Source: Marsupella aquatica
Lineage: Eukaryota > Plantae > Marchantiophyta
DNA: 64,000 nucleotides
Assembly (NCBI GenBank): GCA_973895155.1
Contig: OZ316894.1
Span: 13,573,580 to 13,637,579 of the forward strand
Direction: 5' to 3'
Shown: positions 3,364 through 36,823 of the stretch, one piece after another
Position numbering within the stretch: the stretch's first letter is position 1
Layout of the letters: every line of letters begins with the position of its first letter
Notes under the pieces: model-generated
Told to the model about the DNA's origin: nothing
The model's input: only the letters and a program-made list of their open reading frames with translations
Databases searched by the model: none
Made by a program: the position numbers and the translations under genes

Positions 3364-5254
3364 TCAAAGCGTCGGGTGTCCTCCTGCAGCACCGCCATCC
3401 AGGATGGATTCAATCCTCCTAACCTCAATCCTGAGAATGCTGATGCGTTTTGTCTCTATCAGTCCCGTAGCACCTGAGAGGCGTCGATGTTTGCGGCTTA
3501 AAAGAGAGGTAGACAGCACCGAAGTGGACGTGATAACCGCATTCAAGTGGTCCAGAATCTCATAGATCACCAACAATTGATCAAAGATTTTTTGTCGACT
3601 TCTGTCAAAAGTTTGAGCATTACGGGCTAGCCAAATGCACCATAGAATCTGGTAAACCGTGTAAATCCGAAGAGAGTGAATAGGCAATTTCCCTGCAGTG
3701 GAAAAAATCAGAGTGAATAAACTTGGTGCTCCATCGCAGAGTGCACCCTCCATCCATCCGTGGACCTCCAGCCAACAGCAACAAGCATGACGACATGAAA
3801 AGAAAATGTGCGGAATAGTTTCAATCGTCCCAGCACATAAGCCACAACAGTCATCCGACTTGCCAATCCGTAGAGCACGGGAGCCAGAGAACAAGCCTTG
3901 CGCAATAATCCGCCACAGAAAGACCTTAGCACGGGTAGAGAGGTCAGAAGTCCACACACTGTTCCACACTCTATTCCAATCCTCATCCGGTAAATTTTCC
4001 CCCCAGATCGGGTTCAGCCGGGCGGAGTCAGTGCCTTTTGGGCGAAGCAACTCATAAGCACGTGCATTCATTAAGTCAAAACGATTCATTCTCTCCTCCC
4101 GATCCAACCAGCGCCACATGCAGGTACGAGAAGCAGTAGCATCTCCCTCACAGGGAGAACCATGGATCACACCGGCAAGAGAGAGGCATAAAGTCCTGTA
4201 GGGAAGTGTAAGGCCTCTCAGACAAGGTAGACGTAGTTCAACATTTTTCCAAGTGCCATCAATTGTAGACCAGAAGTCCCGAATTCTCCTGATACCCAGA
4301 GAACCAAACGTTCTTGTTAGCAGCACAATATCGATCTCAGGTAAATTGTAGAACCCTTGTAGACAGTGGATAGTATCTTCAAAACCCCAGTGGCCAGGGA
4401 TGTGATCGGCCACAGTAGGACAAAAAATCAAATTTGATCTCATTCTCTCCCAGGCACTCCACAACTGATTCGTATACGTAAGTCTCCCAAAGCTACGAGG
4501 GGTACAGAGTAGCAACTTATCAGCCATAGAGTAAGAGCTTCGACATATAGCCTTGTAGTTCCGCCATTTGGTAAGTTGAAGGTTTTCCGCGAACATGCAA
4601 GCCCATTCAGATTCAGGATGGTCCAAAGCGCCAGTAAACCACTTACACAGAAGGGCATCAGAGTGACTCTAATCTTGAAGTCCTTCAGGCCAAGTCCACC
4701 GTCAGATTTGGGTCGAGTCATCTTATCCCAAGCCACAAGTGGGATGCGTCTTCCACCCAGCGGGTTCAAACCCCACAGAAAAATTATGTTTAAAGCAATC
4801 AGCTTTTTAGTCAAAGCAGCGGGAGAGAGTAGGAACATCATGTGATAGATCGGGATGGCCTGAAGCACATGCTTGATTAATAGCAGACGACCTGTGAAGG
4901 AGAGAAAGCGAGTGGACCAGGATGCAAGACGTGCACTAATCCGGTCTAAGCAAAAGCAATGTAGTTGCTTCTCAGTAAGATTGGATCCAAAAGGTCCACC
5001 CAAATATCTCTACATAGTGCCAGCAGGGCTGATTGTACAGCCAGTGTCCTGTAGCCAGCCAGGGTTCTCTTCAAGTGCCAGGGGAATAATGGTTGATTTA
5101 GCCAGGTTGAGTTTAGCACCAGTAGCACACTCATGGCAGGTAATAGGCAAATAGAAGTGGGGAGAGGGGGCACCCCTGCCGGACTCCTCTACACATGTGA
5201 ATATCAGCAGACCAAAGATCGTTGACTAGAACTTTGGAGCAAGAGTTGCTTAAT
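3364..5254 (-). pseudogene. LINE-A ORF2, C-terminal part (RT end, zf-RVT)
   Basis: KYLGGPFG, LSFTGRLLLIKHVLQAIPIY, VAWDKMTRPKSDGGLG, KVFLWR, CGLCAGTIETIPHIFFSC, WCIWLARN motifs. Frameshifted, with an internal deletion after CPLSPLLF. Confidence 0.9.
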
Positions 5255-5279
5255 CACTACTACACTATTGGCCCCTTTT

Positions 5280-5850
5280 GCAAACCCATACACATCGCAA
5301 TCAACAAAGGCTCGATAAACAGAATTCCGGCACTTGCGAACTAACACGCATCGCTACACCATCCCAAATTGTGAAGTTAAAACCTTTGCACGTGGACCAT
5401 CGCAACGCCATCGCAACACCATCACAATTTCCTAACCAAATTCCCTCGCAACTTGTCGAACACTTCCGAGTTCAAAATCGTTGCAAACGCTTCGCATTAT
5501 GCCGCACAGTCCTTTGTTACCGACGTTGGTTTTTGTGAAGCTGGAAGGTTCGCTACGTGTTTTTGATGGGAATGAGTTTGATATTTGCCATGTCGTGGGG
5601 TTGGCAACTAGCGAGCCTTATAAGATCACTCTTATGCGAAATAAATTTGATGGGGACTTCCGATCTAAATTGGATCGGAACTTGTGAGTTGGTTTAGGCC
5701 AGAAGTTGGGAACCATTTGACTTCGCAACTTGTGATGTTACTTGGTTCTATAATAGCGATCCGAGTCATTTTAGTATTTCCTAGTTATCCAAGTTCGCAA
5801 TGGGTTCGCACTTTCATGGGAACACGACTTTCAATCAATGTTTTGCGAGG
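5280..5850. repeat. Left subterminal repeat region of CACTA-1 (dispersed TCGCA(A)/TTGCGA motifs)
   Basis: Many TCGCAA/CATCGC/TTGCGA motifs in both orientations, mirrored at 14860-15225. Confidence 0.65.
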
Positions 5851-6092
5851 GATTTCTCTTGGCAGTGGACCCAATGTGGAAGGCAAATGTTTTTTATAAG
5901 ATCCATGCAAGTATATAGGTGGATATACCAAAATGTTAGGGCTTGAATTAAGGAACCCAATACACAAGAGGGGTGGCATATCTGATGCCGGCCAAGTCAC
6001 CCTACTCAACATATGCTATCCTAGCTAAGCTCCAACACGGCTAGTCAGTGACATGTATCTCATGAGCCCGGTCATGAGATTCTACAAGCTAA

Positions 6093-8125
6093 CTAAAATG
6101 GACTCTTCCGACCCCGCTTTGTCGGCTTCTTTACCAGCTTCTTGCCCTTATCCTTCTGTGGATGTACAGCCTGGTGCTGACGGGTGCGCGGTGCCTTTCG
6201 GCGCTGCTGCTCCTCCTGCTCCTCCTCCTCCTGCCCATCCTCCTCCTCGTCACCTCCCTCCTGCTCCCCCTCATCATCAACCTGTCTTGATGATGCACGA
6301 CTACTACCACTACCGCGATGGGATGAACCTACCTCCCGGCTACTGCCCCTCTCCCTAGAACCGCTGGTAAGAGGAGTAGCCCCCTCATCCTCATCATCAC
6401 TACTACTTGCGTCAGCACCCGACCCCTCAGGCTCATCCAAATCCTGCATCCGTACACTTAATCAGTTTCTACAAATTAAAAAGGGTCATCCACAATGTTG
6501 GCATCACAATTAATTAAACCTTGAACACCTAGATACTTACAGTAGCCAACTCGGCATCCACCATCTGAAAGAGGTACTTTCTCCCATGCTCCATCCCTAT
6601 CTCAATATGTTTCTTGGATATCTTCCTCTTATATTTCCGGTACTGCCATGCACCATAAAACCAAAAAGTAAACCCATAGGCTAAACCAAAATTCACAATG
6701 CGAGAGGCCTTAGGCCTAGAAAAGTTAAACTACTTTGAAAACAACTCAAATTCACATTTGCAAAGCTAATGCGTTCACAAAATGCGAAGCCCTAATTTTT
6801 GCGAAGGCATTGCGATGGCTTTTGCGATGCACGTACCTTCGCAACAGCATCAGAAAATCCAAAAAGAAAAAAGTGCATAATAGAGTTTGCGAGGCTCTTG
6901 CGAACGAATACGCATCGCAATGGGATTGCAAACTGTGATCCCAAGAGGTTTTTAAAAATGCGCAAATTTCTAAGTGTCAGTCGTGACCTAAAACAATGCA
7001 CAAGCAAGCACATGAGAGCATGGACATTCATGACATTCCATTCACTTTGCATTACCTCAACTGAGAAAGTAAGGAGGAAAGAGCTTAGGGAGGAGAGGAG
7101 ACACTTACAAAGTGGGCCTTGAGACCGGGGAGCCCGCCTTGACCCAGCTTGTGGACTGGATTGGGGGTGGCTTTCACTCGCTTGGCTGCATCCATGAAAC
7201 GTTTGGGTGGTCTTCCTTCTTCGTCGACCACCTTTTGCACATCAGCTACCTTCTGCTCGAGTCCCTTCAGGTCATGGTCAAGGGGGAGCTTCCCGGTCTC
7301 CTTTGCTTTCAGGGATCGAGCTAGTGTATCCTTCCATTGTTCCAACTCGCGAGCTGCTTTGATTTGCACCTCAATCTTGTAAAATGCATTCCAGATGTCC
7401 TCAGTGAATTGGAGGGGCCTGCGCAAATTCCTGTACGATCTCAAGTCTCTCAGGTGGGCTCTAATCTTCATCCTATCATGGTATCTCATTTGAGACATGG
7501 AATTAGAAATCTTGTCTGCCAGCCATTGCTCATCTATGTCAGCTCCATTACGAAATGCATCCTTGATCTGATTCATCACTCTCTTTCGCTCTGCCTTCTC
7601 AAACTTTCCCCATTGCATGCCTCGTGAGAAATTGCTTGTGATGATCTGTTTGATGGTGCTCTTAGCCCCTGCATAGGCTAGCTCAGTTGGAGTCCCAGTT
7701 GTCTCCAAGGCAATGAATGGAAGCTTTTTCCTTGCATCCTCTTTCTGACGTTGCTCATCTCGTTGTTTTCGAATTGCATCCCTCTCCTCTCTTCTCTTCT
7801 ATTTTTCTATGGCTTGAGGAGAGGCAACTCCCGACTTAGCCCTCTCCTCCCTCTTCCTTCTTTTCTCTCTAGCCTTCTCCTCAGCTGCGACCCTCTCTTC
7901 CTCGTCTCTAGTAGCTTGCCCTGCCACAATTCCTGTTTGCAAAACCTGGCCTAAAATGGCACTCAAGGAGGCAAGCCCTGCTGGAGTATTCAAATTTACT
8001 TCACCCAACTGTGCAGCACTGAGATGTTGGGCTACTAAGTCGCTCCATGCATTCTGTTGCTTCTCCTGATTTGCCCCATTGCCACTACCACCAGCACCAT
8101 GTCCTCCACTCCCACCGGTAGCCAT
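6093..8125 (-). pseudogene. CACTA-1 second gene (TnpA/ORF2-like), multi-exon, divergent from the transposase
   Basis: Exon ~8125-7109 (one in-frame TAG at 7799) ends ...NPVHKLGQGGLPGLKAHF|GTAAGT, comparable to NPMLTGRGG in CACTA-2 ORF2. Exon 6642-6541 has AG/GT ends, followed by an acidic final exon ~6468-6093. Confidence 0.65.
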
Positions 8126-8589
8126 AGCTCAATCCCTCTCAGGTCTCTCTCGATCTTCTCCCCATGGCCCCTTCTCCTATCGCTCTCCCGATCAAACAAG
8201 GAATGAGCTTGATGCGAGCTCCCGCCGACACTTACGCATTTAAAAAAAACCTCTTTGCAATCACATTCGCATCACAAACTGCCACCCTATTACCTTCGCA
8301 AACGGTCTCGCAACTTGCGATACTTTTGTGAAGAACATACCCTCGCTAATCCATCGCAACCCGCAGAAATGCCCAAAAATTGTTCTCGGCCTCTGTATTT
8401 GCGAAGATGTTGCGAACCCGGGAGGTTCGCAAAATGCATCTCTAATTTGTGAAGCAATTTGCGAGGCAGGTGATCTCGGTTTAGGGTGGGAAACTATCCC
8501 AGGTGTTTAAACGGCTTTACAAGGGTATGGCCTATTTAAACCCTTTTAACTCAACATGGATTTGTGAATGGCCAATTAGTTTGAAGAAG

Positions 8590-9410
8590 AGGATTTTGGG
8601 TTGTAGTTGGGCTTTGTGTTTTTGTTTTTGAATCTTAATTGGGTTCTAATTTAACAAAGGGTTTGAGTTTTGATTTGGGGTTTGGATTTAGAAAGGGTTT
8701 AGTTTAGGGAGGGTTGTGTTTCAATTGAAGGGGTTAATTTGGGTTTAGGTTTTAATGTAAGGGTTGGGTTTGACTTTTCACTGATTTCATATTTTTTTCT
8801 CTATACATATTTCAGTTTAGGGACATCGTTTTAATAGAGGGCTTTAAGTTAGGGTCTAAGGTAGGGGTTTGGGTAAGGTTGTAATTGAGAAGTTTGGGTT
8901 AGGGTTTAGGGTAGGGGCTTGATTTTGGTTTAAGTTTAGGGGTTTGGGTTAGGTTTTAAGTATAGGGGTTGGGTTCCATTTTAATTCTAAGTTGTGTTTC
9001 ATTTTAATTGTGGGGTTTGGGTTAGGATTTTTGGGTAAGGGTTTGATACGTAATGAGGGAATATGGATAGGTAACTTAGGATGGAGTTTGAGTTAGGGTT
9101 TAAGGTAGGGGTTTGAGTAAGGTTTTAGCTTAGGGGTTTGGGTTAGGTATTGAATATAGGGGATCGATGGGTTCAATTATAATTCAGGCTTGTGTTTAAT
9201 TTTTAATTTAGGGATTTGGGTTAGGGTTTAGGGTAAAGGCTTCATAGGTAATGAGGGAGTTTGGGTTATGGTTTCAGATGGGGTTTGAGTTAGGTTTTAG
9301 CTGAGGGATTTGGGTTAGGGTTTGAATGTAGCAGTTGGGTTTTTAGCGTAGGGGTTTTGGTTAGCTAGGGCTTTGGGTAAGGGTTTTATATGTTCATGTT
9401 TAGGGTAGGT
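8590..9410 (+). repeat. Degenerate telomere-like G/T-rich array (GGGTTAGGGTTTAGGG; ~23-bp and ~195-bp periodicity)
   Basis: Repeated GGGGTTTGGGTTAGG(G)TTT units including exact TTAGGG and TTTAGGG. 8961-9150 is similar to 9155-9340. Confidence 0.85.
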
Positions 9411-9849
9411 TTTTTTTCTAATTGAGGGTATGCTTTCTTTATTTCATTAACATGAAGGGGTGGAACACTCTAGGAGTTACAGGGCACTTCCCCATCGTTT
9501 TGAGAGTTTTGGCTAATGCATATGCATTGCGAGAGCTCGGGCATCTGAAAGGTAAAGCTTGTTTTCCTGGCATTTTTTATTTGTACTGTAACTTCAGGGT
9601 CTATCATCCCTTTCTATAGTTTACCATAAGTCATTGCTTAATTCATTGTATATTTGCAGATTTCTCCCTCCTACTTCCAGATTGGGTTCATCAAGTTTGG
9701 ACCAAAAGACCTATAGGCATTGCTGAGCCCGGGTCTCATAAAGGTATTTTTTCCTTTCATTTCAGTTTAATATGTCTACTTAGGGATTACAAATGATCGT
9801 TTTAGCTATTTGTTTACTAACTCGTTATTCCAAATCTTCCACTTGCCAG

Positions 9850-10083
9850 ATGTCTTCATCCTCTACAACTTCCACCACATCAGACTCCTCCTCTGATGAG
9901 GACATAGATCCTCCTCCTCAGCCTGAAACAGCCGCTCGTCGACCTAGTGGTCCACCACGCCAACTTTGCAGTTGTAAAAAATGTGTGGGGATGGTTGTCC
10001 AGAAGTCATATGTATGTGCAAACCATATTTCTTGATATGGACAACATCGAGGTCTTACACCCGGAGCCTCTTCATCCCATACG
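9850..10083 (+). CDS. Coding exon with Cys/His module (transposase-associated-domain-like), one premature TGA
   Basis: CCAG|ATG at 9850 and phase-0 donor ACG|GTGAGT at 10084. Encodes LCSCKKCVG..VCANHIS*YGQH, which parallels RCPCMQCQG..VHSHLQRHGRH at the N-terminus of the CACTA-2 transposase. Confidence 0.65.
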
Positions 10084-10186
10084 GTGAGTTGTAAACTTAC
10101 TATGGTTTATTTTTTATTCAATAAATATTGCTAGCATGATAAGTTGGGGAAGTTTACAATCACTTTGTTGGATTTGTTCCCTATAG

Positions 10187-11002
10187 GTATATAATAGGCC
10201 TACACCCACGGCACCAGCACCCTATGTTCCCTCACAAGGAGTTCTAGATGCTATAGGCTCGGCCCTTTCACAAGCTTTCCGTTTAGTTGCAGCAGAGCGA
10301 AGTGGTGTTGGGACAGTTCAGGGTGATGGTATTGTTGCACGAGGGAAAAAACGGTCTAAAAGGCAACCTAGAGGGGAAGTTGATCAGTACACCTGTAGGG
10401 TTGATGGTAGGTGGGGACCTTGTACATTCACAGGGAAATGTGTTCCTATCATAAAGGATTGGAATCCTGATTGCCTTGGTTTGCCATGTGATATAACCTA
10501 TGGTGAGGAAATAGAGGTTTGGGGAAGACATTGGATTGTCAAAAGTTCTACACTAGGGGAGAGACATGGGTATGGAATTTTTTCTTGCCAGGACATCATT
10601 GTGGATGATATGGGTGGAAAAGGGCGCTCTCAAGATGGACCAACGTTGTTCCCATATGGTGGACCCATTTACAAGCGAAGACATTGGAACATGCTCTTTG
10701 TACAACACCCTGAGTGGAAGACTTATGCATTGGACATGGATACTTTTGAAGGTTGCACTAGGAAGTATAGTGAACAACGTATAATTGATGGTGATCCCAT
10801 CCGTAGTGGAAATATAGCCGGTTTCATTAACAGTATTGTGGGGACCCGGCCTAAGCGTAGGAAAAACTGTGAATGGGTTTTTGTTGATGGTCCCCCTCCA
10901 ACACCATATGGGCAGAGATATCATCATGACCATTGTCTAGTTGTAGCTACTAGGACCATCAAGGCCGGAGAGGAGTTGTTTACACATTATGAGTGGGATT
11001 AG
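10187..11002 (+). CDS. SET-domain protein exon inside CACTA-1
   Basis: Open frame from acceptor TATAG|GTA (10187) to TAG 11002. SET motifs in order: WIVKSSTL..HGYGIF, PYGG, YALD, IIDG, GNIAGFINS, NCEWV, LVVATRTIKAGEELFTHY. Confidence 0.85.
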   Translation, partial: VYNRPTPTAPAPYVPSQGVLDAIGSALSQAFRLVAAERSGVGTVQGDGIVARGKKRSKRQPRGEVDQYTCRVDGRWGPCTFTGKCVPIIKDWNPDCLGLPCDITYGEEIEVWGRHWIVKSSTLGERHGYGIFSCQDIIVDDMGGKGRSQDGPTLFPYGGPIYKRRHWNMLFVQHPEWKTYALDMDTFEGCTRKYSEQRIIDGDPIRSGNIAGFINSIVGTRPKRRKNCEWVFVDGPPPTPYGQRYHHDHCLVVATRTIKAGEELFTHYEWD

Positions 11003-11198
11003 GCTTATTTTAGGGATATGTATTATTTATATGTTCCTTCATGCTTTGTGAACATATATTTTGTAAGTTAGGGTTTACACCCTAAACCTATGATGTTCTT
11101 TCACATTGTATGTTAATAATATGTGTCGATATTGTTTTTGTCTTATGAGGGATTTAATTTGGAGTTTGATTGTGAATGCTTTATTGTATTGTCCATAG

Positions 11199-14100
11199 AA
11201 TGTGCGACCTAGCCAAGATATGTTGCCAAGGAGGTTGAGAGCTACATATGAAGAAATGGGCATGCCACAAGACGGAGTCACATCATCAACAGATTCTTCA
11301 TCCAATGACAGTGACAATGAGGGTTTGGACGAAGGGGCACCTAGGACAGATTTTGAGGTCATGCAGGACCAGGAGACAGCCATGGATGACTTCATGACAG
11401 ATTGGTTTGGTGTGGACGCCCGTGTGGACGTTGATGGTGAAGGACGTGGACCACCCAATGAAGGAGCTCCTCCACCAAATGCTGCACATGACCCCCGACC
11501 TCAACATACACCAGAAGGTCAACAACAATGGGAAGAAGCGGAGGCACATGCTAGAACACCTATTTATGGGGGTGCTCGTTTGAATAGACTCTCTACCATC
11601 TTGGCATTGATGAATCTTCAGGCAAAACACAAGGCAAGCAATGCCCTTCTATCGGATTTGTTTGCAATTTGCCATGACCTCATGTTACCTAGTGACAATG
11701 TATTGCCAGGAACTTGGAAGGAGGCAAAGAGAGTTCTATCATCCATTGGTATGGAATATCATATCATTCATGCTTGTGTGAATGACTGCATCCTATATCA
11801 TGAGACCAATGCCAACATAACTGAGTGTCCAATTTGTCATGAGCCTCGATATGACAACAACATGTTGACGGAAAAGGTGCCCAGGAAAGCTGTCCGTTGG
11901 TTTCCCATTATTCCTCGATTGTTGCATATGTATCGATGTTCTGACTTGGCAGAATTGATGGTATGGCATAAGACACATCGATCAGAGGCCGTTGTCATGC
12001 GGTTGCCAGTTGACTCCCCTGCTCACAAGCATGTGGAGGCACAATGGCCAGAGTTTGCACATGACCCTCGTCATGTGAGGTTGGGGTTGGCATCGGATGG
12101 GGTCAGCCCACACTCCCTTGGTGGGAAAGGACCGCCCAACATCAGTTTGGCCGGTGGTTGTTATGAATTACAATCTTCCACCATGGTTGTCCATGAAAAA
12201 GGGCTTCTTATTGCTATCATTGATTATCCCAGGTCCATCTAAGGTAAAAAACATGGACACCTATTTGGCACTATTGGTTGGGGAACTCCAAAAATTATGG
12301 GACGGTGTGTGGGCCTATGATGGTCGAAAAACTACAGGGGGATTACCACGTGTCTTCAAATTGAAGGGAATCAATATGTGGACCATGCATGACTATCCTG
12401 GTAAGGGGTATGGATTGGTGTTTTGTTTATGTAATAGAGAGTTTGTTTTAAAAGAAGTCCCTCATATTTATGTATGTACATGAACTTTTTAAATCCTTTG
12501 ACTCTAATTGAGAAAGTTATTTTGGTTTGGGTTTGTTGCAGGGTTTGGGTTTGTTTCAGGGTTACAAACTCAAGGGTATAAGGCATGCTCCACTTGTGGT
12601 CCAAGCCTTGAAGATATGGCCAAGTACTCAAGATGGCTTTGCAAGATAATCTACCTTGGGCATACCAAGTTTCGTCCACTTGGACATGAGATGAGGTCTG
12701 ACCCCCTTCTATTTTCAGACTTTGACATGATCAATGGTGATGAGCGTGACATACCTGAGCGTACATCCTTTGCACATTGGAAATCCATAGCTGATAGGGT
12801 GGCAGACCCTAACGACCCCATGATATTTGATGGAAGTGGGTTGACGAGGTGGAGTATACTAGCCACATTGCCGTATTGGCCAGAGTTGAAGATTCATCAT
12901 TTGTTAGACCCCATGCATATAGAGGGAAATGTTGGGAAGGCTTTGATCAAGCATTTTTATGGAGAAAATGACCATAATTTTAGGGAGGCATGCCAGGATC
13001 TAGAACGACATCCAGATGTATGGATAACAGTTGATGCATCAATAGGGATGGAACACCGTCCTTCAGCTCCTTGGGTTTTGAGTGTTGGTGAAAGAAGAGA
13101 GTTTCGACAATGCATAGGTCAGATGCGGTTTCCTACAGGCTATGGTGCCAATCTCCGGAAAGCTTTTGGGATGGAGGACAGTCATAAGTGGCCAATGTAT
13201 TTGAAGACACATGACTATCACCGTTTACTACAACATATACTTCCCGTGGCAATCATAGGCTTGGGTAGTGAAGAAATGCAAGACGCCCTATGGTCATTGG
13301 GCACTTTGTTGAGATGGATATGCTCAAAGGAAATATATGAAGAAGAGATCCCACGGATGGAGGTATTGGCAGCAGAGGTAGTGTGCAAGTTAGAGAAGGC
13401 CCTCCCTCCTTTCTTCTTTGATTGTCAAGTACATTTACTTGTTCATCTTGTGAGGGAGGTTGCCATTGCTGGTCCAGTGCATTGTCGTTGGATGTATTGG
13501 TTGGAAAGGTATATGGCTGTGTTAAAGGCTTATGTACGGAATCGTGCACGAGTGGAGGGGAGCATGGCAACAGGATACTTGGCAGCTGAGAGTATGTTCT
13601 ATTGCAGCAACATCTTAGCTACCATTGATCCTAGTTGTCCACGCAGTTGGATGGAAGAGAGAGAAATGGAGGAGGATCGTTTAACAGAGCCAAAAAAACA
13701 TGCTTATTGACCGGAGTGGAGTTGACACAGATGACTACTTTCATGTTGAGTAATAGTACTGTGATGGAAGAAGGGAGAGAGTTTTATGAGGATGCAAAGA
13801 GGGAGAGTCGTCGTCCAAGGATTTTTCCAAAGTTCCTTGAGTATATGAGGGAGAAAGTACTTCAGTTGGATGCTATGGTGGCCCAAGGTGAGAGTGTATC
13901 ACATTTTCCAGATATGACTCCTGAGGTTCGAACAATTGTTCATGGCCCTTTGAGACTTGTTCAGACCAGAACAGCAATGTGGACACAAGGGAGACATTTC
14001 AGGATTTCTGACCTTGATGAGAAGAGGGGTAGAACTTTTGACTGTGGAGTTCAAGGGCAGTTCATGCAGGATTCACAAAGTAGCCGCCATGACACCAATG

Positions 14101-14489
14101 TCATCCGAGATGTGGTGCCTCACTATGGGAAGATAGAGGAGATCTTGATTGTATCCTATGATAGGGATACAAAATTTGAAGAGTATGTCTTCAAGTGTAA
14201 GTGGTTCAAAATTCACTTGGTTGGTGAGAATCGCACAGTACTTCTTGATGATTGTGGGTTTACTCGACTGAAGACATCAGCAACTAGCTTTCAACCATCT
14301 CATTGGCAAACATCTGAACCGTTTACATTCCCAAGTCACCTTGAGCAGTGTTTCTATATTCCGTACCCACCAGACCCAGAGGAGTGGTCAGTTGTTATAC
14401 CGTATGTGCCACGATCTCGTTCCATTATTTCAGAAAAACCTGAAGTTATTATTGTGTCAAACGGAGGAGAGGATGAGGACCAAGTTTGA
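11199..14489 (+). pseudogene. CACTA-1 TnpD-type transposase (Transposase_21, DUF4218, DUF4216-like)
   Basis: IHACVNDCILY..CPICHEPRY, HVRLGLASDGVSP, YNLPPWL, HDYPG, LDPMHIEGNV, KTHDYH, WMYWLERYM, FKCKWF, EPF..EQCFY. Intron 12401-12541; frameshifts near 12135 and 13690. Confidence 0.95.
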
Positions 14490-14859
14490 TGCATCACTAG
14501 TAGTAAAACTTGTTGTGAGCGTATAATTGTGATTATATTAACTATCATGGTTTTATTTATATTTACCTATTTATTTTCTTCTTTTGTCTTACAAACACTT
14601 GGACTTTGAAATTTCATTTTACTGCTATACATGCAACCCTAGCCACTAGAAAAGTTCTCCTCATGCATGCCACCTTTTTTAAATCCCTAGCTTATAACCT
14701 AAACACATGCATTCTCCATCTTCTAAAGTTTTCTCTCAAAAATTTCCATTCTGAAAACTTTGCAAACAACTCTCTTTGTGAAACATTTTTTGAACCAGAC
14801 AGGAAGGAATTTCTGAACCTCTTGTGAATCCAATTCCATCGGTACTTGTGATACAAATA

Positions 14860-15225
14860 CGTTCTCAAACTTGCGACCAAATTGGCTTCGGTACTTTGCA
14901 ACCCACCGTTCTTCACAACACTTTCCGAACATAATAGGTTCACAAACCATTTGTGATAGTATTAGTCTCGCTAAATTATGAACCAAAATGTATCCGAATA
15001 CGGTCGCGATGGTCGCGGACTCACAAAGTCATTGCGAGACAACTAGTATCTAAACGTGTTGCGAAGTCAATAACATCAAAACTTAATTGCGATGTATGTA
15101 GCTTCACAATGTGAATGTGCGATGGTAAGAGCATGGGATATTGTGATGCGTGTTGCATCACAAAATATCTGAAGGTTCTAACATCGCAAGGCCTTTTCGA
15201 CTTCAAAAAACACCTTCGCAAAAGG
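14860..15225. repeat. Right subterminal repeat region of CACTA-1
   Basis: Clustered TTGCGA/TCGCA motifs immediately inside the right TIR. Confidence 0.6.
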
Positions 15226-15243
15226 GGCCAATATGTAGTAGTG

Positions 15244-17171
15244 AATAGGGACCGTACCAAAAGGATGAAATGTGAACTAAGACCTAGAAGGTTCAAAGTC
15301 TCCCAGATGTAAAGATGGCTGACCCTATCAAAAGCTTTCTCAAAGTCAAGTTGCAAAAAGAGAGATGGGGTCTACATATATTCAATCCAGTCGCTTGCCA
15401 ACCAAGTAAGCAAGATATTCTCCAAAATATGTCGACCGGGAATGAAACCGGTCTGCTGTGGACTAATCATACGGGGCAGTAGCACCATCAGTCATCGAGC
15501 AAGCAGCTTAGCCAAAATCTTGTAAGTAATGGTAAGCATTGTCAGCGGCCTCCAGCCACTTAGATGCCGCTTGTCAGTCTTTTTGGGGATAAAGCGGATC
15601 ACTCCATCCTTGATGCCATAAGAAATATGACCAGTCCTCCAAAAGGCACAGATCATATCATAGAAATCAGCTTTCACAAAATCCCAAGAGGCCCTCAAGA
15701 CCTCGGCGATCATACCATCCACTCCAGGCGCCTTCTCATTGGGTAGCATGAGCAGAGTATCATGTACCTCCTGTAAGGTAGGTAACATATCTAGATTTCT
15801 GTTCTCAGTGGCAGACAGGGAGAAATGAGTGTGTTCGCAAAGCCTCCAACGAGCAGATCTCATCTCCAGAAGCTCCACAACACTTTGTTCAAGTGGAGAG
15901 TACAGTGATTCACAGAATGTCTGAACCTCCTTGATAATCATATTTTCATCTCTAATTTCTTTGCCATCCTTGCCAATTAGGCATTCCATCATTTCTCTCA
16001 CTCGCTTCGCCTTGACCAATGAGAAATAGAACTTAAAAGGTTTTTCCCCCTGGCCAAGCCAGTTGATTCGGGAAAGACGTTGGTAGTAGTGTGCATCTTC
16101 AAGCTCCAGCTTGCGAACGCAATTATCTGTGAAGGAAAAATCCTGGACAGCTCCCAGAGAGTACTCATCCATGATAGCAATTTTAAGGAGGCGAAGTTTG
16201 TTCTTCAGGAGTGCCAATTCTTCTTTACGAGGCACAGCCAAAGATTGAAGCTCCATGTAGCATTTCCGAAATCTCTGAAAAGCCCCAACAAATCGTAGAT
16301 GCGGGTCCGCCAAAGCAGCTCCTTCCCCCTTCCACGCAGCTGCCAATAATTTCGAATTTCCAGACTTCTGAAGTATCAAGGGGTTTGCCTTAAAGTAGGT
16401 CGCTCTTCTCCTGTTGGAGTCAATCATAGGTGAGGGATTAAGACGAAAGGTAATCAGTACAGGATCGTGATCAGAAAGCGCCAATGTTCCATCATGTTTA
16501 AGCTTGAAAATCTCAGAGGTCCAGCGGCCAGCCTCGCTGAAGTAGAAGCGGTCAAGTCTTGATTGGGACAGTCTACCATTGCGGACTCTACGCCAAGTAA
16601 ATGAAGCACCAATAGCCTGGCCCAGGATAGAGATAGCGTCTAGCAGGTCAAACTTAGTTTTGAGAAAGCGCCAAAATTCCAACTCACGGCCGCAGATGAG
16701 AGGGGATACTCCACTAGAATGTTCACTTCTCTCAGTCATATTGAAATCACCACAAATTATCCAACGGTCCTGAGGCAGGACATTCAACAAGTCGTTCCAT
16801 AACAACAATCTTTCTCCAGCCAAATTGGGTGCATAAAGGCTAACCAGCCCAAAATTCCCCTCAACATGTTCTATCTGAATCCATACCGCTCTTCCTCCGT
16901 CAAGAACGCCAGATGTTGTAACCTTGAAAGAGGGGTGAATGAGAATAGTTGTCCCGCCACGGCCATCATCAGGGGGAGAACAAAAGTGTTGGAAGGAGGG
17001 CAGAATAGTACATAGAGCATTATCCAATTTGAATCCATCAACCTTGATCTCCTGTAAAGCCAGAGCATCAAGAGGTGGGCGCAAAGAGGAAGCCCACTTA
17101 AGAACAACGTGCTTACGATCTGGATTACATAGTCTGCAAACATTCCATGAGGCAAAATGGAAAATTCACAT
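15244..17171 (-). pseudogene. LINE-A ORF2, N-terminal part (APE endonuclease and RT start)
   Basis: FASWNV, LQEIK, YAPN, CGDFN, SRLDRFY, SDHDP (APE endonuclease); KAPGVDG, WRPLTML, LDFEKAFDRV (RT). Confidence 0.93.
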
Positions 17172-19974: not shown

Positions 19975-22880
19975 CTAACAGTCTACAAATTTCTCAGGCC
20001 ACATCACAAATGATTCCATAGCATCCACAAGATGGATGTGTGGCGGATCATCTCCCTTGTTTGGAAAGGGTAGAAGATATTTGGGCTTACTAATAGCAAT
20101 CAACAACAGCACAACATGATCAGCAAGTACCTTCTTTCCATGGAAAGTACTTGCTTCAATTTGAAGTATGCCTTGCCCAACACAAACACCAGAGTTATCA
20201 GTTGCCATTAGCCTAGAAGATTGTGCTACAATGCTCACTGCTGTCCCTTTTGGAGAATTAATACTCCTCTTCTTCTTTGGTGCCTTGTAAGGCAAAGTCT
20301 CCTTCCCACTATTTCTGGTCCTCATCTTTCCCATGTTCATCAGTGGTGGGGATTGAGAAAACTCATCTCCAATACCTGGGGGAGGCTGAGAGTCTATGAA
20401 AACCACATCATTGTCATCACTCTGCTTCTCCTGTGAATCTGAAAATTTGGTAGCCTCTAAGTTTTGTCTCCTCTTCCTGCCTGTTGGATTTGGTATGCGC
20501 ACCTCCTCCTGTGTTGGTTCTGTACCTCAATAGCAGCCACAAATTCCTTCATTTACAACTAAGCATATAGGCACTAAAGCTGTCAACAAACCATCAAGTT
20601 TGCACTAATTGAACGTACATGGCATAGAACTCAACCACATTAACAGGCCAGACAGAGTCTTCAAACCAACATTTACTTACTCTCAATGACAGTTGTACCA
20701 GGTTCGATGATCTTTGGATCTGCTGCAGCCACTGCAATCTGATCACCTGATGCACAATGTAACAAACCTTGAGGGTCTAGAACCTGAACCTGAACCATCC
20801 TGCACCCATGAACCTCAAATTCCCAGGTAAAGTCACACTACACTAAACATGATTTCAGATGACACGTACCACTCTTCTTTGTAGGCACAACTTCCACAAT
20901 ATTTGCAGGCTCTTCATAAGGATGTGCAATTGGGTGCTCAACCTTGCCAGCAATGTGCATCGCCCGCAACTCATGTAGTTCAGCTTGTACTTCCCTTAAG
21001 GTTGATCCTTGGCTTTGAAGAAGACTAGCTATGTCCTTGAAATGACTCTTGATCTCAGTCTCTACTGATGGCCAAGCATTATCCACAGTCTTCAACCGGT
21101 CTGATATCTCTATAAGGGTAGACATTGCTCCCTGCTATATATCACATACACCAACCAAACGGCTCTTCTCAGCAATTTTACAATTGCATAAGGGCTGACA
21201 GTACTGTACATATGAAGAAGGACTGTTATCACACTTTACCCTTTTGATTTCTGCCACAACCTCCTCTTTTGTGGGTTTCTCTCCAGTAAGCTTTTTCTAG
21301 AGCACATAAACATTGCAAGACATGTTTCTCAATGTCAATCTTGCCTAAATGTAGCATGCTACTACAACTACATATAGTTGACTCAAATATTGAAATGTAA
21401 ATACATATACGTATGGCATGGGAACCCAACCAATTTGGCTACTACTAGTGCATGTCCTCCCCTCCCTGTAAGCATAGGATTCTTCACTGCATTTCTAGCA
21501 GCAATCATTTGTGCAGACTTCTCCTGTCCTGCCCTAGACAGGAATGTCCCTCTCAGTCGAGCCCATTGTTCTACATGAACACTTGGGGGTGCTTCAGCAT
21601 GTGGTTTACTGCCATCAACAATCCATGCTTTGTGCAATCGATGCTTCTCTGTTTTCATGATAGTTCATCCATACTCTGCAAGACAATCAACACTGACCCC
21701 TTTCCTAGAATTCCCCAAATATTCCCACTTGTCTCGCATATATTTGCAAACCAGTTCCCAATCAGATGGATGTTGACAATTAAAGTTAGTACAGCTAATG
21801 TCCAACCACCATAGACACTCCATTCGCAGATCATTGTGCCATCTATTCTTTCCAGCACTCATCGTTGTGATCCGGCCTTCATCATCAACTTCAACAGTAC
21901 CCAGCTTCACATTCTCACCTCTCCCAGTGCTCCTTGATGCACTACTTGGTGTTGCAAATCTAGGAGTTTCTCCCCCATGGCCTGCGCGGGGTGTGATAGG
22001 GTTATCTGAAAAGAGAAACGCAATTAACACCATTAATATCATATGGTCTCTGTGAACTACCTGATTTCAATACTTTACTTAGAACTGTTGTAGAAAATAC
22101 CTCCTCCCCTCCGTAGACTCTCTGTCGGTTGGACTGAAGGTGCTGGTGCTGGTACTGGGTTCCCACCATAACCTTGCCATCCTGTCACCATTGGGAGAGG
22201 ACCTCCCATGAATTGCCCCAATGGCCCCATTGACCCTCCTTCATACATATTTGTGGGCTGCATACGGTCCCACATTGGGTCTGCCATTCACATCAGACCA
22301 GGCAAATTGTCATACTCAGACCCACATCTATTGAGGAACACAATCAGCCAATTTGAGCTCAAAATACACTTGTCCACATGAAACAAGTTAAAATGTTCAC
22401 ACTTACTTGACCAACTCGGACCCATATAGCTGGCAGAAGGGCCTACACCCATAGACCCGCCATAGTTATTGCCCCTTGTCGTGCTTGCGGCTAGTTATAG
22501 TTGGGGGCATTAAATTGCGGGTTATTGCAATTGCTGTTGCTTGGGGCTTGGGCTGAGTATACAGAGGGCGTCGGTCGAGATCTCATAGAAGTTCCCCTAG
22601 TTGCCTTATTGCAAGCAGGCTTTGGTGGTGGGGTAGGATTTGGCATGTCATCATCCTCCGACATGCTAGCACTTGGATTTGGATCTTGGTCAGGATCATA
22701 TTCTGTATCACCAACATCAGGCATGCAATCCTCTACCTCATTCTTATCAGGAGATTCAGCCATTGAAATAGGGGTCTTTGAAGTCAACCTCTCACTGCGT
22801 CGCCTAGGTCCATCAGGATTACAGAAGGTCTTCCGTCTACAATGACTCTGCTTTGACAGTGTTGGGATACTTTTGTTACT
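19975..22880 (-). pseudogene. CACTA ORF2 / TnpA-like multi-exon gene
   Basis: Exons aligning with CACTA-3 ORF2: GKNRWHNDLRMECLWWLD, QWARL..NPMLTGRGG, and C-terminal VCVGQGIL..FHGKKV..HVVLL..LPFPN..WP. Several GT(A/G)AG donors on minus. Confidence 0.75.
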
Positions 22881-22941
22881 GCAACACCCACATGAAATTC
22901 GACACAGTAGGCTTAGTCCTAAAAGGTTCAGTCTAAACTGG

Positions 22942-22958
22942 CCCGGTTTCTACTAGTG
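22942..22958 (-). repeat. Orphan CACTA TIR (CACTAGTAGAAACCGGG)
   Basis: Exact 17/17 reverse complement of the CACTA-3 terminus at 52100-52116. Confidence 0.8.
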
Positions 22959-23271
22959 TATGTAGTAGTCCATTACAAAAGCTACACAATGAATAGACGC
23001 ACACAACAAGATACACATACAGCTCATACTATGCACAGTCCCTTACATATCCAAAATGGCCTCTTCCACATCACCCAACAGGGCTGCGGCACATTGGCGA
23101 ACCCATGCTCGGTGTTTCACAACCTGCTTCTCATACTCACACATGCCATTTTTGTCTGGCATCCTACTCACCAAGTTACTGCGGTTGCACAAACAAGTCA
23201 TCCATTTATTGCTCATACTTGCTACTCATTGCACTTCAAAGAGTCACCTACTCACAACAAAACAAATCCAA

Positions 23272-26200
23272 CTACTCATCATCTTCGTCCATGTTAGCTT
23301 CAACCTCTCCCTCATAAGTTTGTCTCACTGTCAAAGGGATGTACTCCCTGGTCCCCTGGCCCCGATGTACAATGTCTACCGCCGGCTGTTCAAAGGCCCC
23401 ATGTGCATCCAAACTGAACTCTATTTTAGTACCCTCCATCCTTTGAACTCTAGGTGAGCTATGGCAAACTACACGCCAATCACGAGACTCCTCCACATCT
23501 AAAAAAAATACTTGCTCAACTTGACTTGGGAACACAAAAGGCTCCATCCATTCTGCCAGTCTTTGGTTAAAATTGACCATTAGAAAGCCATTCATATCCC
23601 GTTTCATGGTCGCTCTTGGCCCATGCCAATCTGGCTTCACCCATGAACCTTTCATTAGGATGATTTGTTGTGACGTGTTCCCATAATTCAGTGCCCAGAT
23701 GTCTGCCAACTCCCCAACATATCCCATCTCCATCCAGCCCCTGTTGTTCTGAGCATCTATATGCTCAAACACATATATTACCCCCAAATTATATGTCACT
23801 AAATGCTTGTCCTCATCATCATGCACACGGTACTGATTCCCATATGCTTTCATCCGTTTATACCGTTGTACAATACGTCTGGGAGGCACAGACAAGAGGA
23901 GAACATCTCTATCCATGTTTGGGTTCTGCCTGCTATGCTCTCAAATTGTTGTCCTGATCCACTCAGGAAAAGTAGGGAATGCCTGGTGATTTAACCCTAA
24001 TTGGGCAGCCTTCTGCACATTGTATTCCCTACATGATGACAATGAGAACAATTTCTCAATACAATGTACATGTCCTACCAAAATGGATATGAATAAAGAA
24101 GGAATGCAGGGAGGGTGTGGAAACATGAGTACTCACTGCCACCAAGGTTGCATCATGACTGTATTGTGTAAGACATAAGTGTGCTGCATCACAAACTTCT
24201 GCAGACAATTGCAAGGAAGTAAAAGTGCCTTGAAGAACCTCTCCAGCCACCTCTTCTTCCTCAGCATCCCACACCCTGCTCCTAACACTGTCTACACCAG
24301 CCATGTATTCTGTAAGGAACCCCAAGGTCTCTTCTTGAATGTAACCGAGAGCCATGCTTGCTTCAGGCCTGTAATAAGTACGTACATGGCCTTTTAGCAA
24401 CTTCATGTACCGTTCCATCGGATACATCCACCTTGTACTCACTGGGCCGTAGTGGCCCAGATCTTCAACCGCATGGATGATCAAATGAGTCATGACATCA
24501 AAAAATGTTGGCGGGAAATAAATCTCCAAGTCACAAAGCACACGCACAATATCTGCCTTTAACTGAGGAAATGTTGTAGGGTCCCACACCTTCACACAAA
24601 TACAGCGAAAGATCTGACACAGTCTCAAAATGACATTGCAAACTGGTTTTTGCATCAATCCCTCAGACATACTGGTAGAATGCCTTGCATCATAACATGG
24701 AAGTCATGAGTTTTCATGCTTCCCAACTTCTTCTTCCTTATATGCTTTGCAAAGGCTCCAGCGTACCCAGAGGGTACTCTGAACGAACTCAGCCTAGACA
24801 AAACTGTGTTCCACTCATTCTGGGTGCAAACATATGGAGCTTGGTACTTGAAAACCACACCCAACCTATTCTGTGATTCTTGCAGCCAAAGTTGAGGACG
24901 AATGCCCTTCTCCTGAAGGTCCTTTCGTACTGCTGCAGTATCGTTGTCCCCCGACAGAAACTTCAAAAGACTTTTGCATACATTCTTCTCAATGTGCATT
25001 ACATCAATGTGATGTTTGCTTGGCTCAAAATCCTGCACCCATGAAGTACGCATGATTGCCACAATTAGGTTCAAACACAAGAACTAAAAACTGTTGTGCA
25101 TAGGATCTAAAGAGGTTCACTGAGTACAAGTGAATATGCAAATGTTACCTTCCAATACTCCAATGATGTGTCCATGATTGTCTGCCTTTTGATGCCATGA
25201 GTCTTTGCTGGGTCGTCTGGCACGTCTCTACAAGCACCATATTCATCACAAGACACCTTGTTCAGTCCCCACTGTAGAAGTTGGTCTCTACTAACCAACA
25301 TAGGAGACTCTCGAAGCTCCCTCTGGTTGTTGAAGCGGGCTATGTGGGATTGACTGTGCCTAAAAGGGTGGTTGGTAGGAAGATATTGCTTGTGGCCATA
25401 GAATTTGATACTGCCCAAGGAAACAAACCGTTCAGATGTAACATCTGGGCCACATCGTGTGCAACCCATCCCTTCCCTACTTGCCCAGATATCATGCTAT
25501 GTCCAGGGTAGTCTGCTATTGAATTAACACACATTGCACGTAGGTTGAATGTCCTCGGTCTACCAGGTCCACAAAGTGCATCAACTATCATAATTAACTC
25601 CATGTGTCCATAGAGTAACCCATTCCTCCACCGCAGGGGCCAACAAAACATCTATGTTTGCACTTATAGCAGAGTTTGGGTCGGGAATCATAAGACACAA
25701 GATCACAAAAAAACGCTTGGTGGATATCCAAGGCGGGAGATTATAATTTATCAAAGTCACTGGCCAGCAAGAATACACGTTGTTCTTGTCTCCAAAAGGA
25801 TTAGCACCGTTGAGGCTTAGACCAAACCTCACATATCTGCTCTCTTCTGCAAAGTCCGGCCACTTCTCATCTATGTACTTCCAATGGTTGGAATCTCCAA
25901 CGTGATGTTGCAAACCATCTGTACTCTTTTGATCAGAGGTCCAAGTCATCATCTTAGAAATAAATGGACACCTATAGAGGTGCTGCAATCTTGGAATGAG
26001 AGGGAAATGCCGTAGGACCTTAGCAGGTTGAGTTGACTTCCCCACGTTCTTATATCTGTGCTTTCCGCAGATAGGGCAGGATAGGCAATCAGCATATTCT
26101 TTTCTGAAAAGTACATGGCCATTTGGGCATGCATGGATGGACACATAATTCAAACTAAGTTTGCTCATCACCTTCTTTGCCTCATACATGTTCTTAGGAG

Positions 26201-26836
26201 CAATGTTTCCAGTGGGTAGTACTGTCCTCTATAGGAACATCAACAACTCTGTTACACATATATTGAGGAACATCACTATGAACCCTAGTTTGGAGCAATT
26301 TGCACCACCATACAATGGGGACATAGCTTCCTCCAAGTAGGCCCAATTCCCAAGAATTGACCATCATCTCTAGCTCCTTCTCCAATGTCAAACTCTTCTT
26401 GGTCCGACGGATCTGCACCATGCATGTCTGGTTCTTCTTCCCCCTGTGCCTCTGCATCTTCATAAAGTGCATCCAGGTCTTGAAAAATGTCTGAAACCAT
26501 CCTAGGAACATCTGCCCCGTCCTCATTAGAAGTCTTGGGACCTCCCTGTGGAACATACTCATCTTCGGCATTGTTGCCTGCATGACCAATGATGTTATGA
26601 AAGAATGCAGAGCGTCTTGCTGTATTCACATTTTCAAAATCTGCTCTCCATTCATCATCCGATGAATCCTCTTCCTCTGGCACATTCCACACCCTGCGGA
26701 TTGGATGTCGTCCATGCCTTTGAAGATGAGAATGCACTTGGTTCAGGGTCATCGAGTGGTATCCTTGACATTGCATGCAGGGGCATCTCATCTGGGCTTG
26801 CTCTAAGCACCTCTCTATTCCACAACTTGGAGTCAT
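23272..26836 (-). pseudogene. CACTA-2 TnpD-type transposase, frameshifted, with introns
   Basis: CPCMQC..H, IHACPNGHVLF..CPICGKHRY, YNLPPW, ADYPG, DVMHIEKNV, KTHDFH, WMYPMERYM, EPFVFPSQVEQVFF. Confidence 0.93.
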
Positions 26837-27347
26837 GACGTGTAATCCTTAGTGGGTGATGCAAAGGGAGTCGCAGTTCATTGGTATGTCTTTGATTCCT
26901 TTGCCCCAACTGTCCATCCTCATTTGCCTGATCCATACCTTCAGCTGTCGTAGGCACCCCTTGGCTATGTACCCTTTGCACTGGACAGGCTTATACAATT
27001 GCATATTCTAAGTACATGGAGGGACACATGCAACTTTCATGAAGGGAATATCACAGACGCTAAACACACTCACTATCAAGTCCGCTTTGTGCTAGCGCCC
27101 GACCTGCTCATGTATCATCTGCTCACTACAGGCAGCAACATCATAACAAACTTGCTATAATCAGTGAGGTGCTTGGTCGTTGACCAGTCAATGGTACAAC
27201 GTACATCATACACTGCCATACATCTCCACATGCAAAACCAAGACATTTGGAGGATGAAAAGGAGTAATGTCTTGTAGACCAAAAATAACACACAAAAGTT
27301 TATTTCAAAAATGTAACCGTCTAGCATACAGACAGTTGAGACCTTAC

Positions 27348-30976: not shown

Positions 30977-31165
30977 TGTTAGACGATGGCTATAATTCAT
31001 ACACCAACAACACAAGGATAATCTTTTCATGAGCCAATGTGGCTTATAAGGTGTTACACATTGGATGGTTATAACTACCTTCTCCTAGTCTCATGACTCT
31101 CTATATCTAGTCCCTATATACCCCTTTGTATCACTCTATGAGTTAGGGTTAAGTGTATTCTAACA
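30977..31165 (-). repeat. Copia 3' LTR
   Basis: Direct repeat of 36283-36471; adjacent PPT at 31166-31174. Confidence 0.97.
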
Positions 31166-31444
31166 CTCCCCCTTGGTTACTTCAATAGAAAGTAACCATT
31201 CTATAGAATAGAGCTAATCCTAATTCAGGGTATATTAGAACTTATAAACGACATGATCTCATTAAAAACCCCCTGCTTTCTTCTTTGGGGTAAAAAGAGT
31301 ATCACTGTCTTACATGTAATAAGTTCGTTAAGTTGAGGGGACTGAGTATATGCTAAGTAGTAATGTGCCATTCTACCAGGTATTACGGGTTTAGGGTGAT
31401 CGTAATAATAATGCCTGAAACGAGTAGTCGAGGGCATTTAGGTA

Positions 31445-36112: not shown

Positions 36113-36282
36113 TGTCAGGTTAATTGAAGTCTAGTAGCCCTGGGGAATTGGCCATGGTCTATGTAAATCAGGGTGCGGGCGGTGAAGAATTGTCGATGAC
36201 AATTGGATGTTATCAAAGAGAGAAAGAGGGAAAAAAAACATAAGCTCGAGAAGATTGAAGGGCATAAATCGTGCTGATAACG

Positions 36283-36471
36283 TGTTAGACGATGGCTATA
36301 ATTCATACACCAACAACACAAGGATAATCTTTTCATGAGCCAATGTGGCTTATAAGGTGTTACACATTGGATGGTTATAACTACCTTCTCCTAGTCTCAT
36401 GACTCTCTATATCTAGTCCCTATATACCCCTTTGTATCACTCTATGAGTTAGGGTTAAGTGTATTTTAACA
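36283..36471 (-). repeat. Copia 5' LTR
   Basis: Direct repeat of 30977-31165; PBS adjacent at ~36268-36282. Confidence 0.97.
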
Positions 36472-36823
36472 GTCTTAAGTATTCTCACTTTATCTCTCAG
36501 AAAGTTCATCTCCTCCTCAGACTGTCTCGGTGCGGATTGCAGCTCCATATATTTTTTCCGCAGTCTCTTGCATGCACGAGAGAAACGCAAGTGAGGGTTC
36601 ACCTCGCCCTCCCCTCCCGCCCACCAGGCAGCCTCCAATTGCTCAATATTCTTCTGATCCCGGAGTATGTATGGGTTAGCTTTAAAAAAGTGGGACTTAC
36701 CTCTTTCAGATTCCCTCTCCTCAATCTGAAAGCGCAAAACAGCCACAATGGGATCATGGTCCGACAGTGACGAGCCCCCATCATGAGTTAGCTCCACAGT
36801 GCCAGCAATCCAACCTCCAAGAC

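Follow-up and report, generated by a model that had tools for sequence, protein, structure and literature searches.

The locus studied here raises the question of why a DNA transposon should carry an exon for a chromatin enzyme inside its own transposase gene. The element is a CACTA transposon located in a window of 64,000 nucleotides (nt; the whole stretch of DNA that was analysed) from contig OZ316894.1 of the liverwort Marsupella aquatica, and between a short first exon, here termed exon A, and the transposase exons B and C it contains an uninterrupted exon that encodes a SET domain (Table 1). We propose, with confidence that is evenly divided, that in this bryophyte CACTA the choice of a splice acceptor yields either the transposase or a protein with predicted lysine methyltransferase activity, with which the element would mark chromatin to its own advantage.

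A first exon probably shared by two proteins

Exon A encodes a serine/acidic stretch that is followed by a C-x-C-x-x-C...H module, and its phase-0 GT donor can, as the initial annotation had stated, be joined in frame both to the near acceptor in front of the SET exon (TAG/10187) and to the far acceptor in front of the transposase (TAG/11199). The SET exon is open for 271 codons and holds the SET motifs at the positions that had been assigned to them. Use of the near acceptor would probably give a protein of 349 amino acids that comprises the Cys/His module, a basic linker and the SET domain and terminates at a conserved stop codon. Use of the far acceptor, for which we see an equally good chance, would skip the SET exon and give a transposase of about 1,125 amino acids.

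Both joins were assessed in a comparison of three families, namely that of the window, that of locus L003 and a Sphagnum-type family, the introns of which do not align with each other. The end of exon A, marked by a phase-0 GT, falls on the same codon in all 20 loci, the acceptor AG is present in 17 of 19 loci for the SET exon and in 18 of 19 for the transposase, where it is also kept in the third family, L003, and the SET exon is closed by its stop in 19 of 19 loci, so that the splice signals for both of the predicted joins are conserved across the compared families. The spacer between the SET stop and the transposase acceptor is not alignable across families except for its final CATAG. The seven codons before the first methionine of exon B maintain N-[VI]-R-P-S-[QE]-D by silent changes right after an in-frame stop, with a serine that is encoded by AGC in the window and by TCT in 16 of 19 loci. 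As this coding constraint lies before the first methionine and after a stop, an upstream phase-0 exon is needed. In 10 of the 35 loci, the SET exon and the spacer were scanned for further phase-0 donors, and no good one appeared; the scan used approximate base frequencies, gave genuine donors of the window scores down to 0.8, and shows the absence of strong sites only.

That exon A is the N-terminus of the transposase had been argued from a second CACTA element of the window, CACTA-2, and the arrangement there agrees with this: the equivalent Cys/His module (minus strand, ~26.8 kb; Transpos_assoc, PF13963, E 1.2e-5, below cut-off) and the acidic front of the CACTA-2 transposase lie together in a single open frame, and CACTA-2 gives no SET match. 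Exon A itself has a weak match to Transpos_assoc. On the strength of these sequence comparisons, there is a high probability that exon A is shared between the SET protein and the transposase by alternative splicing. Among the joints listed for contigs of four sequencing runs, which extend across introns and element ends, neither 10083>10187 nor 10083>11199 occurs, which provides no evidence on expression. The SET acceptor of the window is at once followed by GT (TAG/GTAT, 10184-10192), which is the layout of a phase-0 recursive splice site and is found neither in L003 nor in the Sphagnum-type family.

Predicted fold and catalytic residues of the SET domain

The assignment of the exon to SET domains, made initially by eye from its motifs, holds at the level of profile and fold. 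The SET exon matches PF00856 with E 1.3e-6 and 29.3 bits at a cut-off of 22.4, and six of the seven SET-complete relatives scanned also pass this cut-off. For the 200-residue core, AlphaFold2 produced a confident model from an alignment of 65 diverse sequences (predicted local distance difference test, pLDDT, 92.2; predicted template modelling score, pTM, 0.88), and an earlier prediction from 37 close sequences (pLDDT 37.6) was set aside. All listed Foldseek matches in the PDB are SET methyltransferases, with SET8 (E 9e-8) as best match and LegAS4 at E 2e-7, and the VIA fold comparison gave Z scores of 11.3-12.4 over 117-135 residues with root-mean-square deviations of 2.1-3.1. The predicted SET fold is therefore sure, and the subfamily is not assignable. 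One Atlas cluster contains 10% PRDM2_PR; PR-domain structures are not among the listed Foldseek and VIA matches, and this listing does not exclude the PR family. Sequence searches against the PDB returned nothing for the single protein, nothing for the first alignment and two chance matches for the C-terminal half, and NCBIfam gave no match for the three SET proteins scanned. No relative was among 33 pattern matches in viral contigs, and among viral proteins the fold comparison matched general SET proteins (best E 8e-8, ~21% identity), from which no origin emerges.

The residues that matter for catalysis were counted in the 65-row SET alignment, which includes sequences down to ~30% identity. 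Gly128 and Gly130, which belong to what we take to be the N-terminal G-x-G motif, are present in 58 of 61 and 62 of 62 rows, respectively, a tyrosine or phenylalanine is always found at position 157 (63/63) of what is presumably the Y-x-G motif, and Asn209 and Asn215 each occur in 59 of 65 rows. In the E-L-x-x-x-Y motif, Glu263 is kept in 54 of 56 rows and Tyr268 in 53 of 55, and by our reading of the motifs Tyr268 occupies the position of the catalytic tyrosine. In place of the canonical R-F-I-N-H-S the family has G-[FY]-I-N-S-[ST], in which the asparagine is kept and the arginine and the histidine are replaced. A tryptophan or phenylalanine stands at the position that would correspond to the restricting tyrosine of SET7/9. 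A conserved N-terminal extension of ~40 residues lies within the confident model. How much depends on the catalytic tyrosine is illustrated by PRDM7, which is crippled by its loss (PMC4919437).

Distribution and selection

A word search among 635 candidates found 40 relatives at E<=1e-3 that are 47-77% identical, with Sphagnum species and Calypogeia as named sources and clusters of up to 360 members. The profile search gave 113 cluster representatives at E<=1e-3, and of 10 that were looked up, four belong to Riccia sorocarpa and one to Calypogeia. All named relatives of the SET exon come from mosses or liverworts. The SET core of the window is 71% identical to the Sphagnum-type core, and in a tree of 62 of the 65 aligned cores (three short rows were left out) it forms a group (support 99/92) with a protein of Calypogeia fissa and two others. 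SET-core relationships conflict with host relationships, which suggests horizontal transfer or old parallel lineages. The Calypogeia SET protein shows 77% identity to its counterpart in the moss Sphagnum and 40% to those in the liverwort Riccia, and Calypogeia has in addition a 28% form (compared cores: P0001, P0003, P0140, P0147, P0199).

The exon is also stable in its position. Of 36 metagenome loci, 35 carry the SET exon, and L036 (38% over 40 residues, no hit) was excluded from the counts. Exon A lies upstream in 20 of these 35 loci, with less than 200 nt of flank in the other 15, and the transposase exon follows ~150 nt behind the SET exon in 20 of the 25 loci with at least 200 nt downstream. 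The 15 loci of the 35 in which it does not show comprise 10 that end too soon, L003, which ends at the acceptor, and four with a broken-off SET domain. Among distant relatives, transposase sequence is found in 6 of 110 representatives and an upstream Cys module in at least five, and Riccia gene models contain SET and transposase domains.

Between the window and 15 loci, the ratio of nonsynonymous to synonymous substitution rates (dN/dS) of the SET core is 0.165-0.206 at a dS of ~1.0-1.2; the corresponding ratios are 0.12-0.17 for the transposase (8 loci) and 0.17-0.27 for exon A (17 loci). Judged by these values, the SET exon is functional at the level of selection and a stable part of the transposon lineage, and the concern that it might be a one-off capture gives way to retention across families under purifying selection. 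Named chromatin enzymes come up with the family profile at no better than E 3e-5, and therefore no close host parent is in view.

Proposed mechanism

What would such a SET protein do for the element? Because the catalytic tyrosine and the glycine, asparagine and glutamate residues on the side of S-adenosylmethionine (SAM) are kept across sequences down to ~30% identity, the SET domain is probably an active SAM-dependent methyltransferase, and the tryptophan or phenylalanine at the restricting-tyrosine position, if the positions correspond, would permit di- or tri-methylation. In the next step, the substrate would be a histone tail, and the Cys/His module that is shared with the transposase would bring the enzyme to the element's own DNA; this step falls a little short of an even chance. 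That the resulting mark then opposes host silencing is doubtful at present. The most far-reaching version would be that an old land-plant CACTA lineage writes its own histone marks through an enzyme that the shared N-terminal zinc module delivers to the chromatin of the element, thereby overriding H3K9/H3K27 silencing, and that the cassette moved between mosses and liverworts, and this version is, if anything, a shade more doubtful still.

Evidence against the proposal and alternative explanations

Several observations weigh against the proposed mechanism. With respect to splicing, the loci belong mostly to one near-identical family, and the conservation thus rests on three families and not on twenty. 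Of the gene models that include exon A, all 29 splice it to the SET exon, and a join to the transposase occurs in none (these models are predictions), the eight matches of a protein search with exon A (188-601 amino acids) are all SET-joined, and no match was found among proteins of 602-2000 amino acids, which is a weak test. The match of exon A to Transpos_assoc has an E of 0.012 and lies below cut-off. With respect to the enzyme, the VIA scores are tied between EZH2, Set1/MLL, SET7/9, SET8, ASH1L and LegAS4 at 16-27% identity, and no particular lysine or activating mark is therefore indicated. The NHS motif reads N-S-[T/S/V] with the histidine changed to serine in 63 of 65 rows, and there is no post-SET cysteine cluster or C-SET segment. 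Finally, dN/dS among sister copies of the Sphagnum-type family is 0.22-0.88 and 5 of 15 SET cores contain stops, which means that many Sphagnum-type copies are dead.

What alternatives exist for a chromatin-marking enzyme that serves the element? The one that survives best, though unlikely in itself, assumes the same splicing and an active enzyme, the target of which is a non-histone protein such as the transposase, ORF2 (the product of the second gene of the element) or a host silencing factor, or the mark of which is repressive and limits transposition. SET7/9 and SET8, which are among the tied fold matches, have non-histone substrates, no reader domain is attached to the SET domain, and there is no subfamily signal. 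However, every fold match listed is a named histone lysine methyltransferase, and chromatin-modifying enzymes of other transposons have been read as counter-silencing by those who described them (PMC12730594). Moreover, the SET domain is preceded by a basic linker, and a basic stretch of RomA aids nucleosome binding (10.64898/2026.05.29.728679).

It is also conceivable, but rather improbable, that the SET domain is dead or crippled and serves to bind histone tails, SAM or a host complex or to act as a decoy for them, or that the short isoform mainly titrates the transposase output by way of the shared Cys/His module. An isoform with the N-terminal module of the transposase could indeed act as a dominant inhibitor. 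The protein ends only three residues past Tyr268 (Y-E-W-D, with the stop at this point in all 19 loci), and the NHS histidine is replaced throughout the family. A decoy, however, would not need to keep the catalytic and SAM-side residues, which are among the best conserved columns. With regard to the histidine, LegAS4 reads INFS at this motif, with phenylalanine in its place, and methylates H3K14 (10.64898/2026.05.29.728679), and since an active enzyme thus does without it, its loss does not exclude activity. Of the two caveats in the initial annotation, the loss of NHS has therefore become weaker, whereas the missing C-terminal segment is a real one. In solved SET enzymes, the SAM and lysine pockets are closed with the help of a post-SET or C-SET segment. 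In LegAS4, a cSET helix is used (10.64898/2026.05.29.728679). It is our guess that the conserved N-terminal extension might substitute for the absent segment.

Less probable again is that exon A is not shared, i.e. that an internal donor yields a fusion of exon A, SET and transposase, or that the transposase has its own promoter and starts at Met8 of exon B. Nine gene models do run from SET into transposase (P0027, P0113 and P0117 from Sphagnum, and 6 of the 110 distant representatives, two of them named as Riccia), and a direct join of exon A to the transposase occurs in no gene model. Yet these fusion models leave the SET exon at different points and in no case include the SET domain in full, which is what prediction artefacts would look like, and the invariant SET stop and the lack of a good internal donor in the 10 scanned loci also speak against a fusion. 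A start at Met8 does not account for the coding constraint upstream of it, and a transposase without exon A would miss the module that opens the SET-less transposase of CACTA-2. Lastly, many copies are decayed and CACTA elements are able to capture gene fragments, but a passively captured, drifting host fragment as in Pack-CACTA can be dismissed with near certainty, as a dN/dS of ~0.2 between families next to unalignable introns excludes neutral capture, and as the exon has the same position and frame in all informative loci, with no close host parent in view.

Relation to known systems

SET accessory genes have been described for HarbingerS and MuDR elements of Phytophthora (PMC12730594), SET-carrying Helitrons are cited in two papers (PMC12730594; 10.1101/2025.02.11.637652), and a SET domain is also part of PAG2, a gene of the red-algal Plavaka elements from the EnSpm/CACTA superfamily (10.1101/2025.02.11.637652). 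The initial annotation, which did not regard a SET domain as a standard part of CACTA elements, thus overstated the novelty, as such accessory genes are already present in several transposon groups including Plavaka. The accounts of the HarbingerS, MuDR, Helitron and Plavaka SET genes are, in their available parts, descriptions from sequence and demonstrate no working histone methyltransferase.

Plavaka is comparable in that an EnSpm-superfamily transposon carries a PF00856 SET domain for which a modulation of chromatin has been proposed from sequence. However, PAG2 is a separate gene, one of a three-gene cassette in elements of 17-19 kb, and combines SET with an N6-adenine DNA methylase (PF01555), whereas the SET domain described here is an exon inside the transposase gene of a 10-kb canonical Tnp2-type land-plant CACTA, and neither the SET exon nor the scanned relatives gave a PF01555 match. 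HarbingerS, MuDR and the Helitrons likewise are DNA transposons with their own SET gene that has been read as counter-silencing, but they belong to other superfamilies and hosts, and their SET genes are described as accessory genes. The element is a CACTA member that would work like the SET-bearing transposons, and it is neither a PAG2 nor a HarbingerS element.

Maize En/Spm and Arabidopsis EN/SPM3 and 7 make TnpA and TnpD by alternative splicing (PMC13547354). They share with the element the CACTA ends, the 3-bp duplication, a Tnp2 transposase and, if our reading of the splice sites is correct, two proteins per unit, but the second product of En/Spm is TnpA, whereas here it would be the SET protein, and the possible TnpA counterpart ORF2 is a separate divergent gene. 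VANDAL elements with VANC and the fungal TET/JBP transposons encode a factor that acts on epigenetic marks, as the SET protein may do, and contain clustered short non-coding motifs (TCGCAA in our case), and for VANC sequence-specific binding and a loss of silencing have been reported (PMC12730594; 10.1101/2025.02.11.637652). In contrast to the SET protein, VANC and TET/JBP act on DNA methylation and have, by these accounts, no SET domain. Among solved enzymes, SET8/KMT5A, SET7/9, EZH2, Set1/MLL and LegAS4/RomA share the SET fold, the glycine motif and the catalytic tyrosine, and LegAS4 also departs from NHS; apart from the low identity, they differ by the ~40-residue N-terminal extension and the missing C-terminal segment of the family described here.

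Our literature searches listed no publication that describes bryophyte CACTAs with a SET exon, and Repbase Reports, subscription journals and supplements may hold such families. What appears to be new is thus a canonical land-plant CACTA in which SET is an exon in the transposase gene and would share the N-terminal module. As the protein is compact (349 amino acids) and its family is multi-copy in plants with assembled genomes, the idea that a transposon writes histone marks in order to evade silencing becomes directly testable. Related tractable hosts silence transposons via H3K27me3 or H3K9me2 (10.1101/2022.10.24.513474). The shared exon would make the function of the uncharacterised Transpos_assoc module testable, and through the splice switch cutting would be balanced against control of chromatin. 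Enzymologists would also have an interest in a SET domain that is active without the NHS histidine and the post-SET segment, if this is true.

Borders, gene layout and state of the element

The terminal inverted repeats are CACTACTACA(C)TATTGGCCCCTTTTGC, with CACTACTACA repeated at 5255 and 15243, and similar right ends occur in the metagenome loci L020 and L023. The repeats are flanked by a 3-bp target duplication (AAT/AAT at 5252-5254 and 15244-15246), as had been annotated. The two flanks rejoin as a single reverse-transcriptase frame of a long interspersed nuclear element (LINE), by which the borders are independently fixed and confirmed as correct. The element thus has the features of its class, namely CACTA ends, the 3-bp duplication, a Tnp2-type transposase and subterminal motifs, and Transposase_21, DUF4218 and DUF4216 all lie above the Pfam cut-off.

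Table 1. Features of the SET-bearing CACTA element (window positions unless a locus is named).
Feature	Position	Strand	Description
Whole CACTA element	5255..15243		9,989 bp; defined by terminal repeats and duplication
TCGCAA cluster, left subterminal	5295..5843		8 motifs
ORF2, divergent second gene	6093..8125	-	~490 codons, three probable exons
ORF2, probable exons	8125-7109, ~6642-6542, 6443-6093	-	
Further TCGCAA clusters	6799-6915, 8296-8459, 14871-15216		7, 8 and 6 motifs, respectively
Telomere-like degenerate array	8700..9400	+	TTTAGGG-rich; between the two divergent genes
Probable 5' untranslated exon	9661..9744	+	CAG acceptor, AAG/GT donor; predicted from sequence
Exon A	9850..10083	+	234 nt, 78 codons; starts CAG/ATG; phase-0 G/GTGAGT donor
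Intron, exon A to SET exon	10084..10186	+	103 nt, GT...AG
SET exon	10187..11002	+	271 codons and stop, open throughout
SET exon, linker	codons 1-71		variable, with basic stretch
SET exon, core	codons 72-271, 10400-10999		conserved, SET fold (predicted)
SET motifs	G128-x-G130, Y157-G-G, D201-G, N209, N215-S216, E263, Y268		
Spacer, SET stop to transposase acceptor	11003..11198	+	196 nt, AT-rich
Transposase exon B	11199..12400	+	Transposase_21 (PF02992); N-V-R-P-S-Q-D precedes first Met
Transposase intron	12401..12541	+	phase 1
Transposase exon C	12542..14489	+	end of Transposase_21, DUF4218, DUF4216, to stop
Insertions in Sphagnum-type transposase	L023 12620-12710 and 13640-13780		also in L009 and L002

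ORF2 is conserved in related elements with a dN/dS of 0.14-0.21, had no family match in Pfam or NCBIfam and no usable Atlas match, and may take the position that a TnpA-like accessory gene would have. A helical stretch at ~7400-7660 gives the impression, and only that, of a possible DNA-binding domain. The motif TCGCAA occurs 30 times within the element, at a density of 3.0/kb as compared to 0.33/kb outside, and its clusters are candidate binding sites of ORF2 or of the shared Cys/His module. Beyond the subterminal zones, such clusters are also found within the first intron and ahead of ORF2. The telomere-like array has a spacing of ~25 nt and is not kept in the Sphagnum-type family; its possible role as a Polycomb-recruiting element was dropped, as the Sphagnum-type spacers contain only 0-2 TTTAGGG (8 loci). 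A further donor lies at 9552, upstream of the probable 5' untranslated exon. The two insertions in the Sphagnum-type transposase are probably introns and have no counterpart in the window family, and L020 (1-2449) is an internally deleted copy in which the SET exon and the front of the transposase are followed by the right terminal repeat.

The copy in the window is dead, which does not hold uniformly for its family: one stop and two frameshifts interrupt its exon A and its transposase, and these are missing from most sister contigs. The frameshifts, like ORF2, had no mention in the initial annotation. The TGA in exon A that had been pointed out lies at 10033-10035, and the frameshifts at ~12132 and ~13686; ORF2 also has one stop, at 7799-7801. 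By contig depth, position 10033 is mostly a C in three sequencing runs (22,956/24,885 in X1, 604/604 in X3 and 1,658/1,658 in X4), but not in the single contig of run X5. Each of the four runs examined has contigs that lack the frameshifts, in varying shares. Ile217, just after the N-S motif, is particular to this copy, and the sister contigs have a threonine (position 10836).

As to the surroundings, the LINE that hosts the insertion is decayed and comprises endonuclease and reverse transcriptase (4440-5251 and 15247-17165, minus strand), and CACTA-2 (~21450-27000, minus strand) is likewise decayed, with a transposase that shares 38% identity with its counterpart in the SET-bearing element. 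A Copia-type retrotransposon with 192-nt direct repeats lies inside a LINE at 30977-36474. Between 36800 and 57000 on the minus strand, three copies of a long coiled-coil open reading frame (<=1,071 codons) surround a gypsy-type gag-pol; these copies are 10.6 kb and 4.9 kb apart and 85-100% alike.

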